Shown: one piece after another, positions 14,091 to 22,553 of the stretch
Position numbering within the stretch: position 1 is the first letter of the stretch
Layout: the number at the start of each line of letters is the position of its first letter
Source of the DNA: Balneola sp.
Lineage (GTDB): Bacteria; Bacteroidota; Rhodothermia; Balneolales; Balneolaceae
Reading direction: 5' to 3'
Assembly: GCA_002694685.1 (NCBI GenBank)
Contig: NZMW01000012.1
Location: 98,556 to 162,555 of the forward strand
Length of the DNA: 64,000 nt
The notes under the pieces: model-generated
Told to the model about the DNA's origin: nothing
The model's input: the letters and a program-made list of their open reading frames with translations, nothing else
The model's database searches: none
Program-made: the position numbers and the translations under genes

Positions 14091-14208
14091 AAAATTTGGT
14101 CTATATAATTATGAAATCAGTTGTGAATTCTCTATAAGAAATAAGAGATGTCTTATTTAAATACAAATAAAAACGCTTTCAGATTTAAACAAAAATCTTT
14201 TTAAGGAA

Positions 14209-16502: not shown

Positions 16503-16517
16503 GTGCAATCGATTGTT
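16503..16517. promoter_or_regulatory. Motif B operator upstream of kdgK (GTGCAATCGATTGTT)
   Basis: Palindromic core CAATCGATTG, about 80 nt upstream of the kdgK ATG; repeated at 20676 and 20833. Confidence 0.75.
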
Positions 16518-16562: not shown

Positions 16563-17591
16563 TTAGGTGCTTTTTTTGAGTGATGATTTCCTGATAATAA
16601 GTTCAGGATTCAATACGGTTCTGGAAGGCGTATGTGGGATGTCATTCTCCTGAATACGATCCAAAAATAAGTTTGCCGTGAACTGGCCCATCTTCTTGCT
16701 ATGCTGGTCAACCGTTGTAAGGGCTGGATCAACAATAGAAGTGAAAGACTCATTACTAAAGCCCACAATCGCAATATCTTCAGGTATACGAAGATTATTG
16801 GATTTGAAAACTTCCATGGCGCCCATGGCGGCATAATCACTCGATGAAAAAATAGCATCAGGCATCTGTTCCCAGGATACTATTTCTTCAGCCAGAGATT
16901 TACCGGCTTCTAATTTCAAATCACTATTAAGGATGAATTTTTCTTCAACAGGGAGGTCATGTTTCTTGAGAGCTTCTTCATATCCTCTTTTGCGATCCCG
17001 ATAAATACTTACGTTCTGAGGTCCTGAAAAATGAGTGATACGCGTGCAACCCTGCTCAATAAGATGTTCAGTTGCTTTGAAAGCACCTAAGTAGTCGTCA
17101 ATTACTACCGCATCTACATCAAAAGATTCTTGCATTCTATCAAATAGAATGAGGGGAATTCCCCGGTCGTGCACTTCTTCGTAATGACTGAAATCGGTGG
17201 TTTCCTTTGCATAAGAGGCAAAAATTCCATCTACCTGAGCTTCAAGTAAAGCCTTTATATTTGATTTCTCCTTTTCAAGCGAATCACTGGATTGACAAAT
17301 AATGACGTTATAGTTCGTGTCATTAAGCACATCTTCGATGCCACGAAGAACAGAGGCAAAGAAATTTCGATCAATGGTTGGTATGATTACGCCAATTAAA
17401 TTGCTGGTTCCTCTTCTCAGCGCAGCAGCAATGCTGTTAGGCTGGTAGTTCATCTTTTTAGCCATAGCCACTACCGACTTTTTGGTAGATTCACTAATTC
17501 TGGGATGATCCTTTAGCGCCCTCGAAACCGTTGAAGCTGTGATATCCAGCTCTTTTGCTATGTCATGAATGGTGGTTCTTTTCTGAGCCAT
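16563..17591 (-). CDS. LacI-family transcriptional regulator (KdgR-like by context)
   Basis: TTIHDIAKELDITASTVSRAL HTH, YQPNSIAAAL hinge, periplasmic-binding-like core. ATG 17591 is preferred over GTG 17600. Confidence 0.93.
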   Translation of the reverse strand: MAQKRTTIHDIAKELDITASTVSRALKDHPRISESTKKSVVAMAKKMNYQPNSIAAALRRGTSNLIGVIIPTIDRNFFASVLRGIEDVLNDTNYNVIICQSSDSLEKEKSNIKALLEAQVDGIFASYAKETTDFSHYEEVHDRGIPLILFDRMQESFDVDAVVIDDYLGAFKATEHLIEQGCTRITHFSGPQNVSIYRDRKRGYEEALKKHDLPVEEKFILNSDLKLEAGKSLAEEIVSWEQMPDAIFSSSDYAAMGAMEVFKSNNLRIPEDIAIVGFSNESFTSIVDPALTTVDQHSKKMGQFTANLFLDRIQENDIPHTPSRTVLNPELIIRKSSLKKST

Positions 17592-17663
17592 TAAGTTCAC
17601 ATACTAGAATGAATAATGCTATGGTGGTAATATGATCTGAGAATATTCAACGGATATAAAAAA

Positions 17664-18962
17664 TTATTCTACAGTAATTGGAGATGAAATTTTTTGTACT
17701 TCTTCTTCCATAAAAGATCGGAAGTATTCAGCATCAGCAAAACGCTCGTCACTTAATTCCCATCCTGCTACTACATGATAGCTCAGGCTTTTCTGGTCAA
17801 CCAGCTCAAATAGGTTAAGGTAACTAGTGGTAATTCCTGGACCTGATTCCGGAGCTTCCGTATAACTTAAATAGTGCATAGATGGAAAAATAATACCCAT
17901 TCCTAAGTACCACTCATCGTCGTACGTCTGCTTGTCGTGGGTGTAGAAAGCGCTAAGTGGGTTATCATCTTTATTTAATAGAACAGGCTGTTCATCATTG
18001 TGAATATTTACCACCCCAATAGCTAATGTATCTGCCACATTAGTACTGCTTAAGGAGATATCGTTTCTGTAGCTGTAACTTCCAGCCCAAATCGTTACCG
18101 TATTCTCAAGATTATAGCTGTTCTCACCTGTATCCCAATCTTCATAGTGAATGCTAAAGACTGACCGAACCGGGCCTTCAGTAATTAAATTATATGAAGT
18201 CATGCCTACATTGCTTTGCTCAGCATCCAATCTCACACCGAGCCGAACGGGGTTGTTGTTTTCAATGATGCCAATACCACCCAGTCCTAATGAATTTCCG
18301 ACGGCCAGTATATCACGCCCCCAGGGAAGCATAACATGGTAGTCATCAACCGGCATGTTTTCATCGGAAATGCCTACCGTATCTAATGCCATGGTAGATA
18401 GTGTCTTCCCATACAAATCACGTCCATTTCGTCCGTCGATATATTGACGGAAGCCAACTTTATCATTTTCCCATGCGGGTCCATCCATCTGGAACCGGGT
18501 GAAAAGAGGGACGGGTAATTCTTCTCCGGGAATTGAGAGTGTTTTCAGGGCTTCGATTCCATTGTCGCCAACTACTCCAAAACGCACATTGGTCCGCTGC
18601 GTGAATTCGGGATAATCACCTGGATTCACATATTCTATTGATACCGTTTTTGACTCTCCGGCTGCAATATTTATGGTGAAGGCCAGCTCATCCCATTCAC
18701 CGTCGCCGTCTATGTCATCTACCTGAGCGGGTAAAGGCTGATCTCCCACAACTGGAAGAGGAAGTTGACCTTCGGTGATTTGGATGCCTCCGGTTTTATC
18801 TATAATTGCATCCCGAGAGAGGACGATAGGCTCGTTAGAACGATCAATTTCAGAATTATTGGTTAGCGTGAAATCTTCCTGCATGGCAGTACATGCTGAA
18901 ATTAAAACTGCCGAAGAAAGAATGAATACAGAAGTGATGTATTTTTTGAATCGCATAGTCAT
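17664..18962 (-). CDS. Lipoprotein of unknown function, DUF4861-like
   Basis: ISAC lipobox after ATG 18962 or 18956; AQVDDIDGDGEWDELAF and GPAWENDKVGFRQY...DLYGK motifs. The ORF-track extension overlaps kduD. Confidence 0.7.
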   Translation of the reverse strand: MTMRFKKYITSVFILSSAVLISACTAMQEDFTLTNNSEIDRSNEPIVLSRDAIIDKTGGIQITEGQLPLPVVGDQPLPAQVDDIDGDGEWDELAFTINIAAGESKTVSIEYVNPGDYPEFTQRTNVRFGVVGDNGIEALKTLSIPGEELPVPLFTRFQMDGPAWENDKVGFRQYIDGRNGRDLYGKTLSTMALDTVGISDENMPVDDYHVMLPWGRDILAVGNSLGLGGIGIIENNNPVRLGVRLDAEQSNVGMTSYNLITEGPVRSVFSIHYEDWDTGENSYNLENTVTIWAGSYSYRNDISLSSTNVADTLAIGVVNIHNDEQPVLLNKDDNPLSAFYTHDKQTYDDEWYLGMGIIFPSMHYLSYTEAPESGPGITTSYLNLFELVDQKSLSYHVVAGWELSDERFADAEYFRSFMEEEVQKISSPITVE

Positions 18963-18966
18963 AAAT

Positions 18967-19752
18967 TTATTCGTTAGCAGGTTTTCCAATGGTAGCCAAA
19001 ATACCGCCATCAACATATACGACCTGTCCATTTACAAAATCGCTGGCTTTAGAGGATAGAAATACTGCAGTTCCTGCTAGATCAGAAGGATCTCCCCAAC
19101 GCCCGGCTGGCGTTCTCTGAATAATAAATTCATTAAAAGGATGCCCGTCTTTTCGGATAGGCTCTGTTTGAGAAGTCGCAAAATATCCCGGACCAATTCC
19201 GTTTGTTTGAATATTATGCTTAGCCCATTCAGTAGCCATATTCTTGGTAAGCATTTTTAATCCACCCTTAGCAGCTGCGTAAGCTCCTACGGTATCACGA
19301 CCTAATTCCGTCATCATTGAGCAGATATTAATGATTTTACCTTCTCCACGAGGAATCATGTGTTTTACAACCTGCTTAGCCATGATAAAAGGTCCAACCA
19401 GATCTACATCAATTACCCGGCGGTAATCTTCGACATCCATATCTTCTAAGGGGACTCGTTTTATTATACCCGCATTGTTTACAAGGATATCTATGGGTCC
19501 AATTTCATCCTCAATTTTGTCAACGTGCTCTTTGGCTTTCTTTTCATCGGTTACGTCAAAGATAAAACCATGAACGGTGTAACCCTCTGATCGGTATTCT
19601 TCCAGAGCTTTCTCCATTTTTTCAGGAGTAGTACCATTGATGATTAATTCTGCTCCGGCCTCGGCTAATCCTTTAGCCATAGCCATACCCAAGCCGTGGG
19701 TTGCACCAGTTACAAAAGCTGGTTTTCCGCTTAAATCAAATAGTGAACTCAT
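18967..19752 (-). CDS. kduD: SDR: 2-dehydro-3-deoxy-D-gluconate 5-dehydrogenase (gluconate-5-dehydrogenase-like), KduD by context
   Basis: TGATHGLG, NNAGIIKR, YAAAKGG, GPGYFAT; immediately downstream of kduI. Confidence 0.85.
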   Translation of the reverse strand: MSSLFDLSGKPAFVTGATHGLGMAMAKGLAEAGAELIINGTTPEKMEKALEEYRSEGYTVHGFIFDVTDEKKAKEHVDKIEDEIGPIDILVNNAGIIKRVPLEDMDVEDYRRVIDVDLVGPFIMAKQVVKHMIPRGEGKIINICSMMTELGRDTVGAYAAAKGGLKMLTKNMATEWAKHNIQTNGIGPGYFATSQTEPIRKDGHPFNEFIIQRTPAGRWGDPSDLAGTAVFLSSKASDFVNGQVVYVDGGILATIGKPANE

Positions 19753-19815: not shown

Positions 19816-20655
19816 TTACTTGAGATCCTGAATTTTTACATGATCCATATCGCCATAATCAAGATTCTCACCATTCATAGCCCAAATAAAAGTATAGTTA
19901 CTTGTTCCAGATCCACAGTGAATAGACCATGGGGGAGAAAGAACGGCTTGATTGTTCTTCATAAAGATATGTCGGGTATTTTGTGGTTCCCCCATAAAGT
20001 GGCAAACAGCATGCTCTTCAGGAACTTCAAAATAAAAATAAGCTTCCATGCGTCGGTCATGAACATGAGCTGGCATGGTGTTCCAAACACTACCGGTCTC
20101 AAGCTGGGTCATTCCCATTTGAAGTTGACAAGTGTCAACAATGCTATTTACGATTAATTTGCGAATTACTCGGTGATTGGCTGTTTCCAGAGACCCAAGC
20201 TCAACAACTTCCGCATCGGCTTGTGATACTTTTTTAGTAGGGAAGGCTTTGTGAGCAGGTGCAGAGTTGAAATAGAAGAGAGGTTGATTTCCATCTTTTT
20301 GGTGAAAAGTGACTTCTTCCTCACCGCGACCAACATATATTGCTTCCTTAAAATCAATTTCATATTCAGTGTCGCCAACTTTAACAATACCCGGCTCACC
20401 TACATTAATTACTCCCAGTTCACGTCGCTCTAGAAAGAAGTTTGCTTTAAGCGGGTCAATGGTTTCCAATTTAAGAGGAGAAGAACCAGGCTTAGCACCA
20501 CCTACAACTTGACGCCCATAAAACGAGTATACCATATTGATCTCACCATCAACGAAAAGATCTTCAATCAGGAAGTCTTCACGAAGGCGATCGGTACCAT
20601 AGTTCTTGACGTCTTCTGGATTTGCAGCGTATCTGACAGAATAATTAACAGACAT
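19816..20655 (-). CDS. kduI: 4-deoxy-L-threo-5-hexosulose-uronate ketol-isomerase
   Basis: FLERRELGVINVG, CQLQMGMT, WNTMPAHVHDRRMEAYFYF, SPPWSIHCGSGT, GENLDYGDMD. Confidence 0.97.
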   Translation of the reverse strand: MSVNYSVRYAANPEDVKNYGTDRLREDFLIEDLFVDGEINMVYSFYGRQVVGGAKPGSSPLKLETIDPLKANFFLERRELGVINVGEPGIVKVGDTEYEIDFKEAIYVGRGEEEVTFHQKDGNQPLFYFNSAPAHKAFPTKKVSQADAEVVELGSLETANHRVIRKLIVNSIVDTCQLQMGMTQLETGSVWNTMPAHVHDRRMEAYFYFEVPEEHAVCHFMGEPQNTRHIFMKNNQAVLSPPWSIHCGSGTSNYTFIWAMNGENLDYGDMDHVKIQDLK

Positions 20656-20675: not shown

Positions 20676-20691
20676 GTGTAATCGATTGCAC
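20676..20691. promoter_or_regulatory. Motif B operator upstream of kduI (GTGTAATCGATTGCAC)
   Basis: Near-perfect 16-bp palindrome about 20 nt upstream of the kduI ATG; TATAAT on the minus strand at 20705-20710. Confidence 0.8.
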
Positions 20692-20832
20692 TGAATATAT
20701 AAAAATTATACCTTTTTACCAGAGACAGAGTTTATTGTTTCTCAACGGTAACTGAATAATTATGCTATCAAACTGTTGCAAAAGCGCTTTTACTTTTTTG
20801 TACAATGAAGTGACTGATTATACTTGAGTAAA

Positions 20833-20846
20833 TGCAATCGATTGAA
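20833..20846. promoter_or_regulatory. Motif B operator upstream of the VOC gene (TGCAATCGATTGAA)
   Basis: Third copy of CAATCGATTG, about 40 nt upstream of ATG 20883. Confidence 0.75.
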
Positions 20847-20882
20847 TTAATTATTCCATGAATACTCAAAAATATTATTTTA

Positions 20883-21278
20883 ATGAAGATTGAGCACTTT
20901 GCTTTTAATGTTGACGATCCTATAAAAATGTGCGATTGGTATGTAGACCATTTAGGATTGACTGTAGTCAGAAAACAAGAAGAAGCTCCTTTTACTGTAT
21001 TTCTGGCTGATAGCAGCGGAAGGGTGATGATTGAAGTCTATAATAATCCACCAGAAGAAGTACCTGATTATAAGAGTATGAATCCTTTGCTACTTCATCT
21101 TGCCTTCGTTTCTGAAAACCCAGCCAAAGATAAGAAGAGGTTAATGGAGGCAGGAGCCACCCTGGTATCTGATGAGATACTTGAAGATGGCTCTCATTTG
21201 GTTATGCTCCGTGACCCTTGGGGTTTTGCGATACAGTTTTGCAAGCGAGCAAAGAATATGATTACTGAAAAAGAGTAA
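20883..21278 (+). CDS. VOC/glyoxalase-fold protein
   Basis: KIEHFAFNV, MIEVY, LHLAF, LRDPWGFAIQF; cytoplasmic, 131 aa. Confidence 0.85.
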   Translation: MKIEHFAFNVDDPIKMCDWYVDHLGLTVVRKQEEAPFTVFLADSSGRVMIEVYNNPPEEVPDYKSMNPLLLHLAFVSENPAKDKKRLMEAGATLVSDEILEDGSHLVMLRDPWGFAIQFCKRAKNMITEKE

Positions 21279-21374: not shown

Positions 21375-22553
21375 ATGAAGACTCTCTTATTATCCGTTCT
21401 CACATTATTAACGGCCTGTTCGCCAGTAACCAGTCAGATTATATCTGAAGATCAGAAATGGTCGGAGCGCATGGCGTTATCCATTATGGAAAGAAATCCT
21501 GATCCGGTTTATATGGATTTCAGGGATGAACCAAAGTGGGAGTATACCTTTGGATTAGTATTGAAATCTATTGAAAAAGTATGGAAGGCAACAGGTGATG
21601 ATCAGTATCTGGAATATATTGATGCCTACTACGATTTCATGATTGAGGAAGATGGCACCATCAAAAAATATGATATCAAGAATTTTAATATAGATCGCGT
21701 TGCTCCGGGTAGGGCTTTGTTTGCACTCTATGATGAGACGGGCAAAGAGAAGTACAAAGACGCTATTGAACAGCTTCGGTATCACCTTGAATATCAGCCG
21801 AGAAACCACTTGGGTGGATTTTGGCACAAACACCGCTATCAATGGCAAATGTGGCTGGATGGTGCCTATATGGGAGCTCCGTTCTACGCTGAGTACAATC
21901 AAAGAAATGGGGATTACGAGAGCTATGATGACGTAGCACTTCAGATTAAACTGATGTTTGAATATATGCGGGACCCTGAAACTGGTCTGCTTTATCACGG
22001 CTGGGATCAAAGTAAAACGCAGAGCTGGGCCGATCCTGAAACGGGACTTTCGCCCAATTTCTGGGGACGTGCAATGGGTTGGTATGCAATGGCTATTGTA
22101 GATGTGCTGGACTATTTCCCAAAAAACCACCCTCAGCATGATGATCTGACAATCATCTTGGAAGAGCTAGTTGAAGCACTGGAGAAATATCAGGATGAAG
22201 AGTCTGGAGTGTGGTATCAGGTGGTAGATCAGGGAGACCGTGAAGGCAACTATTTAGAAGCCTCTGCTTCAATAATGTTTACTTATGCCATCAAGAAAGG
22301 AGCAAATGAAGGATATCTGGATGAATCTTACCACGATTTTGCTGAAGTAGCTTTTCAGGGCATTTTGGATGAGTTTATTGAAGTAGATGAGGACGGCCTT
22401 GTCAATATAAATCATGTTTGTGCGGTAGCTGGTTTGGGTGGAGATCCATATCGAGACGGTACCTATGAGTATTATGTGAATGAGAGAATTCAGGTAAACG
22501 ATACCAAAGCCACAGGTCCATTTATAAAATTAAGTCTAGAGATGGATCGATAA
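21375..22553 (+). CDS. GH105 unsaturated (rhamno)galacturonyl hydrolase, lipoprotein
   Basis: LTAC lipobox; NIDRVAPG, GGFWHK, MWLDGAYMG, LLYHGWD, FWGRAMGW, YLEASAS, VCAVAGLGG (YteR-like). Confidence 0.92.
   Translation: MKTLLLSVLTLLTACSPVTSQIISEDQKWSERMALSIMERNPDPVYMDFRDEPKWEYTFGLVLKSIEKVWKATGDDQYLEYIDAYYDFMIEEDGTIKKYDIKNFNIDRVAPGRALFALYDETGKEKYKDAIEQLRYHLEYQPRNHLGGFWHKHRYQWQMWLDGAYMGAPFYAEYNQRNGDYESYDDVALQIKLMFEYMRDPETGLLYHGWDQSKTQSWADPETGLSPNFWGRAMGWYAMAIVDVLDYFPKNHPQHDDLTIILEELVEALEKYQDEESGVWYQVVDQGDREGNYLEASASIMFTYAIKKGANEGYLDESYHDFAEVAFQGILDEFIEVDEDGLVNINHVCAVAGLGGDPYRDGTYEYYVNERIQVNDTKATGPFIKLSLEMDR

Follow-up and report, generated by a model that had tools for sequence, protein, structure and literature searches.

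Two protein families are known to open the rings of sugar acids. KdgF is a small cupin metalloprotein (structures from Yersinia, 5FPX/5FPZ; Halomonas, 5FQ0; and Bacteroides eggerthii, 7ZYB/7ZYC) that is encoded beside kduI, GH105, and lyase genes and speeds a step that is also spontaneous. The B. eggerthii enzyme (BeKdgF) opens the ring in a base-catalysed, mutarotation-like reaction, using a His3-Gln metal site, the base Asp102, and Arg108 (PMC11381880). YhcH/NanQ (DUF386; YhcH/YjgK/YiaL) is a metalloprotein of another fold; it acts on sialic acid (a 2-keto acid), which it makes available in open form to the enzyme that follows, and its deletion has a weak phenotype (PMC8141875). In most cluster types, kdgF occurs in under half of the strains with a kduI/dhuI cluster, which has been interpreted as dependence on rings that open spontaneously (PMC12838403).

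The gene described here lies in a window of 64,000 nt of a Balneola sp. genome (G000; 3.95 Mb, Balneolaceae, 99.7% complete), on contig C9; its closest named relative, judged by the VOC protein sequence, is a Balneolaceae MAG. The window carries a large pectin and hexuronate locus, whose minus-strand genes encode a TRAP transporter, eda, uxuA, kdgK, a LacI regulator, a DUF4861 protein, kduD, and kduI. The plus strand carries, in order, the VOC gene, GH105, PL1, GH43, CE12, CE8, and uxaE, and farther along the window are TonB receptors, GH28, uxuB, uxaC, a second LacI, uxaB, and uxaA. Ten genes were covered by a profile scan, and the other names come from sequence reading and local BLAST. The genes closest to the argument are:

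20883..21278, plus strand: VOC-fold gene, 131 aa, cytoplasmic, unnamed subfamily (PF00903; model pLDDT 92.8)
19816..20655, minus strand: kduI, divergent neighbour of the VOC gene (NF002091, 423 bits, cut-off 250)
18967..19752, minus strand: kduD/dhuD-type reductase (NF005488, 443 bits, cut-off 369)
21375..22553, plus strand: GH105/GH88-family unsaturated uronyl hydrolase, next after the VOC gene (PF07470, E 1.5e-109)
16563..17600, minus strand: LacI-family regulator, putative binder of motif B (profile match; third motif B site at 16504)

The original prediction described a 131-aa cytoplasmic VOC protein encoded divergently from kduI, and both points hold: the gene starts 227 bp from kduI on the opposite strand, its product matches PF00903 (E 7e-13, 49.4 bits, cut-off 20.6), the N-terminus MKIEH is kept among homologues, and a search of the 131-aa protein for a signal peptide found none. 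GH105 follows on the same strand after a 96-bp gap in which no terminator was found. A search of plasmids for homologues of the VOC protein also returned none.

The predicted structure is a confident two-module VOC domain (paired beta-alpha-beta-beta-beta modules). Structure searches recovered generic VOC matches only, at 17-23% identity (best Z 15.1 to 1SS4, and 14.2 to 1F9Z), and the best Foldseek match was E. coli glyoxalase I; PDB sequence matches to designed armadillo repeats were artefacts. The homodimer model scored 0.93, versus 0.35 for the best control (pLDDT 94; runs agreeing on at least 98% of contacts), and passed a mark that 20 of 30 solved homodimers and 1 of 23 monomers also passed. 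In this model, strand 1 pairs with the partner's strand 72-76 as in a textbook VOC dimer, and resemblance to structures already solved may therefore account for the pass. Judged from its sequence, the protein is a member of the VOC superfamily and is not glyoxalase I, methylmalonyl-CoA epimerase, or KdgF by descent. Since its fold is VOC and not cupin (KdgF has an HxHxxxQ...H site and an Asp/Phe/Arg motif), it could only be an analogue of KdgF.

The predicted active site was traced through 121 close and 161 distant domains:

20895..20897, plus strand: His5 codon, predicted metal ligand 1 (100% of close and distant domains)
21033..21035, plus strand: Glu51 codon, predicted ligand and candidate general base (100% close, 99% distant)
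21096..21098, plus strand: His72 codon, predicted metal ligand 3 (100% close, 99% distant)
21234..21236, plus strand: Gln118 codon, fourth ligand position (100% close, 98% distant)
21246..21248, plus strand: Arg122 codon, candidate carboxylate-binding residue that could also be structural (100% close, 98% distant)

Together with Glu4 and Trp19, these residues are 98-100% conserved in close and distant members. A His, a Glu, and a His had been predicted at metal-ligand-like positions, and they align with the ligands of E. coli glyoxalase I (His5 with His5, Glu51 with Glu56, and His72 with His74). The fourth position, which the prediction did not mention, is Gln118 (aligned with Glu122), and all four canonical VOC metal-ligand strand positions are filled, giving a predicted metal site.

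The same residues bear on a second suggestion made for this gene, detoxification of methylglyoxal. The protein shares its fold, a modelled dimer with intersubunit sites, and three of the four ligands with glyoxalase I (E. coli GloA, 1F9Z) and the SMU1112c/YaeR family (3L7T, 2P25), and the genome of the window encodes mgsA and bshC, while none of eight other VOC proteins scanned in it passes a glyoxalase I cut-off. Glyoxalase I, however, works with two Glu bases (Glu56 and Glu122 in E. coli), the second of which is replaced by Gln family-wide, and a Glu-to-Gln change at this second catalytic Glu cripples the human enzyme. In place of the glutathione-binding Arg9, every close member has Asn and most distant ones have Asn or Gln, although Asn60 is retained as Asn55. 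The curated glyoxalase models score far under their cut-offs (TIGR00068, 19.2 bits versus 120; NF050075, 18.4 versus 140), the top match to a GSH-synthetase domain in the genome is RimK, some family members are secreted, and the gene follows uronate genes instead of general sugar catabolism. A glyoxalase I-type role against methylglyoxal or reactive dicarbonyls derived from uronates, possibly using bacillithiol, is thus disfavoured and in our view very unlikely, despite the top structural match. Methylmalonyl-CoA epimerase offers another comparison, as a cofactor-free VOC metalloenzyme with acid-base chemistry of the kind predicted here; its ligand set in Propionibacterium is His/Gln/His/Glu. 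The corresponding model (TIGR03081) did not match the VOC protein, and a separate true orthologue of this epimerase is encoded on contig C4 of the same genome (140 bits, cut-off 115).

Close homologues number about 1,500, share 54-70% identity across Balneolaceae, Cytophagales, Cellvibrionaceae, Verrucomicrobiota, and Acidobacteriota, and bear only generic names where named at all ("VOC family", "glyoxalase"). Sixteen distant members have signal-peptide-like N-termini. Tandem VOC forms exist, as do fusions to AGE-family sugar epimerase, Gfo/Idh/MocA, and phosphatase-like domains and large LamG/CARDB proteins. A literature search found no paper that ties a glyoxalase/VOC gene to KdgF, KduI, or uronates, or that describes the VOC subfamily. 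The protein defines an unnamed, conserved, and unstudied subfamily tied to uronate catabolism.

Among the secreted or lipoprotein members, P0123, P0126, P0127, P0135, P0142, P0167, P0169, P0171, and P0183 keep the His/Glu/His/Gln site, and some of them are tandem. The secreted proteins P0271, P0272, and P0274 (L192:10001-14800) reach up to 1599 aa and combine LamG, an unannotated centre, CARDB, and two C-terminal VOC domains. An apparent fusion of VOC with BNR_4 (P0273, 983 aa) was rejected, because read-through into the secreted gene that follows seems to explain it.

Three motif B sites, which are LacI-type palindromes, are found in the window (16504, 20677, and 20833), giving 5 strand-matches versus 0.5 expected, a number as high as which was seen in 0 of 100 shuffles. 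Two of them and a further palindrome lie between kduI and the VOC gene:

20677..20690, no strand: motif B palindrome, 22 nt upstream of kduI (motif scan; relatives)
20780..20791, no strand: second perfect 12-bp LacI-type palindrome (AAAAGCGCTTTT), between the motif B sites (pattern scan)
20833..20846, no strand: motif B palindrome, 50 nt upstream of the VOC start (motif scan; relatives)

In each of the 17 intergenic regions that were examined, the kduI-proximal site lies 20-30 nt ahead of kduI, and the VOC-proximal site has the same spacing in seven relatives (G085, G118, G126, G134, G172, G195, and G038). The palindrome is conserved upstream across genomes, marking a LacI regulon of the KDG branch with putative repressor sites, and from its position the LacI encoded at 16563..17600 likely binds motif B. 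The VOC gene had been credited with its own motif B site; the site is present, but it is not the gene's own. The VOC gene heads the run GH105-PL1-GH43-CE12-CE8-uxaE, and relatives without a VOC gene there still have motif B: G118 retains the second copy though its VOC gene is elsewhere, and G094 and G152, which have lost the VOC gene, carry motif B just before GH105. The 20833 site is therefore probably an operator of the whole divergent operon. Motif B also precedes uxuB in G077 and G095. In another lineage (L247 and L248), two motif B sites lie ahead of a VOC-yiaK-Gfo operon, which independently supports the VOC gene as a regulon member. The AAAAGCGCTTTT pattern, picked after being seen, gives 9 matches versus 1.6 expected; similar sites occur at 14169 and 45935 in the window and in five relatives (G134, G195, G094, G152, and L193), and the palindrome is possibly a site for the other (second) LacI. 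A sigma-70 promoter scan gave chance-level results only.

The main idea of the original prediction was a strict, non-homologous KdgF acting upstream of KduI on the 4,5-unsaturated monouronate only. It had noted that the window lacks a KdgF-type cupin, and this is confirmed: an HMM of 13 KdgF sequences, with a seed validated against PDB 5FPX/5FQ0/7ZYB, reached at best 31.7 bits on the six-frame genome, versus 183-214 for members. A co-induced kdgF elsewhere in the genome had been named beforehand as one part of a refutation, and no such gene was found by this whole-genome search, and ten Cupin_2 matches inspected one by one were all rejected as KdgF. DUF386/YhcH (PF04074) was not found in this genome either; it is present in 3 of 47 genomes and is rare in VOC carriers and non-carriers alike. 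A distant family of KdgF-like cupins (L089 type; 55 bits, about 30% identity) is frequent in several genera of Balneolaceae, lies outside uronate clusters in both loci viewed (L089:1426-1785 and L096:1402-1761), and was left out of the kdgF counts.

Across 200 Balneolaceae genomes, we found the VOC gene in 33, kduI in 25 (17 shared), and uxaC in 74 (30 shared). The VOC gene is enriched with kduI (17/25 versus 16/175), and uxaC is present in 30 of the 33 carriers versus 44 of 167 non-carriers; in the three carriers that lack uxaC, either kduI is present or kduD or a PL10-like gene lies next to the VOC gene. A GH105 orthologue occurs in 7 of the 33. True kdgF is found in two of the 200 genomes, neither of which has kduI or the VOC gene, so its absence from carriers weighs little. 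Both the genome of the window and all but one (G309) of the 42 other carrier genomes searched lack kdgF. The 181 Cytophagales genomes contain the VOC gene in 5, kduI in 46, and kdgF in 24, and only G309 has both kdgF, in an alginate locus, and a VOC gene, a distant copy beside an L-fucose dehydrogenase gene. The anti-correlation with kdgF proposed as a check did not emerge in Cytophagales (1/4 versus 21/42, p=0.61, not significant), and genomes with kduI but neither kdgF nor the VOC gene number 8 in Balneolaceae and 21 in Cytophagales.

A restriction to the KduI substrate agrees with the enrichment, with PL10-like, PL1, and PL8/heparinase neighbours, and with the place of the VOC gene between kduI and GH105; kdgF adjoins the same two genes in several Cytophagales pectin loci. 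It conflicts with the 16 of 33 Balneolaceae carriers that lack kduI. In the genus g12, kduI is absent from all 27 genomes, and searches for kduI, kduD, and PL10 in the five carriers found none of them, yet the VOC gene is kept under purifying selection (dN/dS 0.04-0.14) with all key residues intact, and four of the five carriers have GH28 at most two genes away and CE8, CE12, uxaE, or uxuB nearby. No KduI orthologue or PL1 homologue was found in G087, G157, G026, G027, and G058 (97-100% complete; the PL1 search had no positive control). DhuI was judged by the lengths of RpiB proteins, as the PF12408 profile gave no match even in control genomes, and G087, G157, G026, G139, and G058 each encode one protein of RpiB length and none of DhuI length. 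Eight of the 16 kduI-less carriers encode heparinase II/III-domain proteins, so unsaturated uronate stays conceivable there. An accessory role in uronate metabolism, a genome without kdgF, and the position between kduI and GH105 are the parts of the prediction that survive; the strict form is not supported, given the kduI-less carriers, g12, and the non-significant Cytophagales comparison, and is improbable.

In the window's own genus, G094 and G152 have lost the VOC gene and G126 carries a broken copy, with kduI and kduD still present, which indicates that the gene is dispensable. Decay touches other parts of the locus as well: the break in G126 is visible at L061:2337-2944, and GH105 is fragmented in G195 (L055) and G152 (L058).

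Gene neighbourhoods show a strong link of the VOC family to uronates. Counting non-redundant loci with enough flank, 37 of 77 have uronate genes within 4 kb, against a background of 2% of the ORFs in the genome of the window, itself rich in pectin genes (a looser count of 40/77 is inflated by generic TRAP genes and exposed to T9SS-tail matches). The 17 other VOC loci of this genome have no uronate neighbour, apart from one match to the PL1b reference that we ascribe to a T9SS tail. Eighteen of the 37 loci belong to the lyase/KduI route, 12 to the hydrolase/UxaC route, 6 to both, and 1 is shared; in a tree of the family, these contexts are interleaved, with no subfamily per route (the tree, with few columns and 25 open branches, is used for this interleaving only). 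Of the named genes directly beside the VOC gene, kduI (8), CE12 (7), uxaC (6), and yiaK-like genes (5) occur most often. Adhaeribacter has a glucuronoxylan operon GH67-GH10-GH115-VOC-uxaC with no lyase in the locus, Pontibacter and Rufibacter carry the VOC gene in pectin operons, one locus has PL8/heparinase genes, and others have the order GH28-uxaA-VOC-kdgK-fructuronate reductase. The link is not tied to the KdgF step in particular, because 16 of 33 carriers lack kduI, neither kduI nor kduD was found in the g12 carriers, and the VOC gene lies beside GH28, GH115, uxaC, or yiaK; in this it differs from KdgF, as the family persists without KduI/KduD and beside genes of the UxaC route.

The other 40 of the 77 loci have no uronate neighbour recognised by the limited reference set. 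That about half of the loci fall here, together with frequent esterase neighbours (CE12 seven times; CE8, AXE1, and other hydrolases), GH115 nearby in several lineages, and GH67 in two, would fit another role in plant-polysaccharide use: a modified uronate (4-O-methyl-glucuronate or methyl- or acetyl-esterified galacturonate) or a uronolactone as substrate, or binding of a by-product without catalysis. None of these neighbours dominates, and the invariant four-ligand site points to catalysis over plain binding; we consider such a role doubtful.

In some loci, yiaK follows the VOC gene (388 bits with the YiaK model, cut-off 316): the order VOC-yiaK-Gfo/Idh/MocA-TRAP recurs in L239, L240, L247, and L248, and VOC-yiaK is also found in G100 and L232. 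E. coli has the DUF386 gene yiaL, a member of the YhcH/NanQ family, after yiaK. VOC proteins usually bind a keto group and a neighbouring hydroxyl, and in G028 and G036 the VOC gene adjoins kduD without kduI. These observations would suit an enzyme that acts one step later, opening hemiketal rings of keto acids (tagaturonate, fructuronate, 3-deoxy-2,5-hexodiulosonate, KDG, or 2,3-diketo-L-gulonate), as YhcH/NanQ does with sialic acid, or isomerising them via an enediolate, and so supplying UxuB, UxaB, KduD, or YiaK. Against this, yiaK adjoins a minority of loci only, and secreted members and glycosidase-rich surroundings are better suited to a hydrolysis product. We regard the keto-acid role as unlikely, though by no means negligible.

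The yiaK loci have features of their own. VOC, yiaK (3-dehydro-L-gulonate 2-dehydrogenase), and Gfo/Idh/MocA genes lie next to uxaA and TRAP genes in L239:1170-3611, L240, L247:8001-10460, L248, L252, and L184:5929-7470, and this cluster may route 2,3-diketo-L-gulonate from ascorbate breakdown into the hexuronate pathway. The genus g38 has another recurrent cluster (L156:2356-9129, L144, L146, and L180), in which a VOC gene, a 148-aa cupin, Gfo/Idh/MocA, a GH88-like gene, an SDR, and a transporter follow uxaC or kduI; this cupin is not KdgF and had no NCBIfam match. In a pectin locus type (L223:3081-11277, L224, L225, and L227), transhydrogenase-like genes (pnt, read from sequence) are located between uxaA and the VOC gene.

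Partners of the VOC gene span both routes, so its substrate should have a feature common to both. KduI and UxaC each isomerise the open-chain aldehyde of a uronate. We therefore tentatively favour, as somewhat less than an even bet, a uronate anomerase that feeds this aldehyde to UxaC and KduI and for which the job of KdgF is one case; we infer metal binding, chemistry, and substrate from context and the active-site pattern, and the dimer is modelled. The overlap of KduI and UxaC in vivo has been shown (PMC3578941). The protein would be a metal-dependent, homodimeric ring-opening enzyme for hexuronate monomers, holding a divalent metal between His5/Glu51 of one subunit and His72/Gln118 of the other. 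The metal would bind neighbouring oxygens of the cyclic uronate, and Glu51, as the single base, would take the anomeric proton so that the ring opens. The open-chain aldehyde of galacturonate or glucuronate would then pass to UxaC, whereas the open form of the 4,5-unsaturated monomer would tautomerise before passing to KduI. As the step is also spontaneous, such a gene would help and yet be dispensable.

The active site of BeKdgF offers a parallel, since the His/Gln metal site, the one acidic residue, and the Arg of KdgF (PMC11381880) have counterparts in the His2-Gln set, one Glu, and invariant Arg of the VOC family, and by this analogy the protein may work like KdgF or YhcH/NanQ. The secreted forms and those fused to epimerase or Gfo domains or to large LamG proteins suit a cofactor-free activity on small sugars. 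We know of no VOC protein that is a demonstrated sugar anomerase. Other points against the anomerase are the generic fold matches, the 40 loci without a uronate neighbour, and the absence of the VOC gene from 44 of the 74 Balneolaceae genomes with uxaC. In uxaC-positive genomes, the gene occurs more often where kduI is present (16/23) than where it is absent (14/51), which leans towards the unsaturated route, though kin are not independent; and the recurring VOC-yiaK-Gfo operon is left unexplained by this model. For the family as a whole, it seems possible, and we say so with slightly greater reserve, that it is a VOC-fold sugar-acid anomerase of saturated and unsaturated hexuronates, a third independent solution after the cupin KdgF and the DUF386 protein YhcH, with cytoplasmic, secreted, tandem, and fused forms in Balneolaceae, Cytophagales, Verrucomicrobiota, Gammaproteobacteria, and Acidobacteriota.

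If so, a second unrelated enzyme would revise the view of spontaneous opening for some lineages, the VOC superfamily would gain a new reaction, a ring-opening step ahead of UxaC that is unannotated today would be recognised, and about 1,500 proteins now called "VOC family" or "glyoxalase" would gain a function name. The step concerned is accessory to a pathway that is already well known, and growth would probably be affected only modestly, as with YhcH (PMC8141875).

Two further features were seen alongside. Contigs C10 and C15 of the window's genome (L008 and L009) have near-identical gene sets, which suggests a duplicated or doubly assembled segment. A DUF4861 lipoprotein-like gene (17664-19031 in the window) comes after kduI-kduD in this locus and in those of many relatives, and is also found near kduI in Opitutaceae (L045), making it a second unexplained partner of the KduI route.
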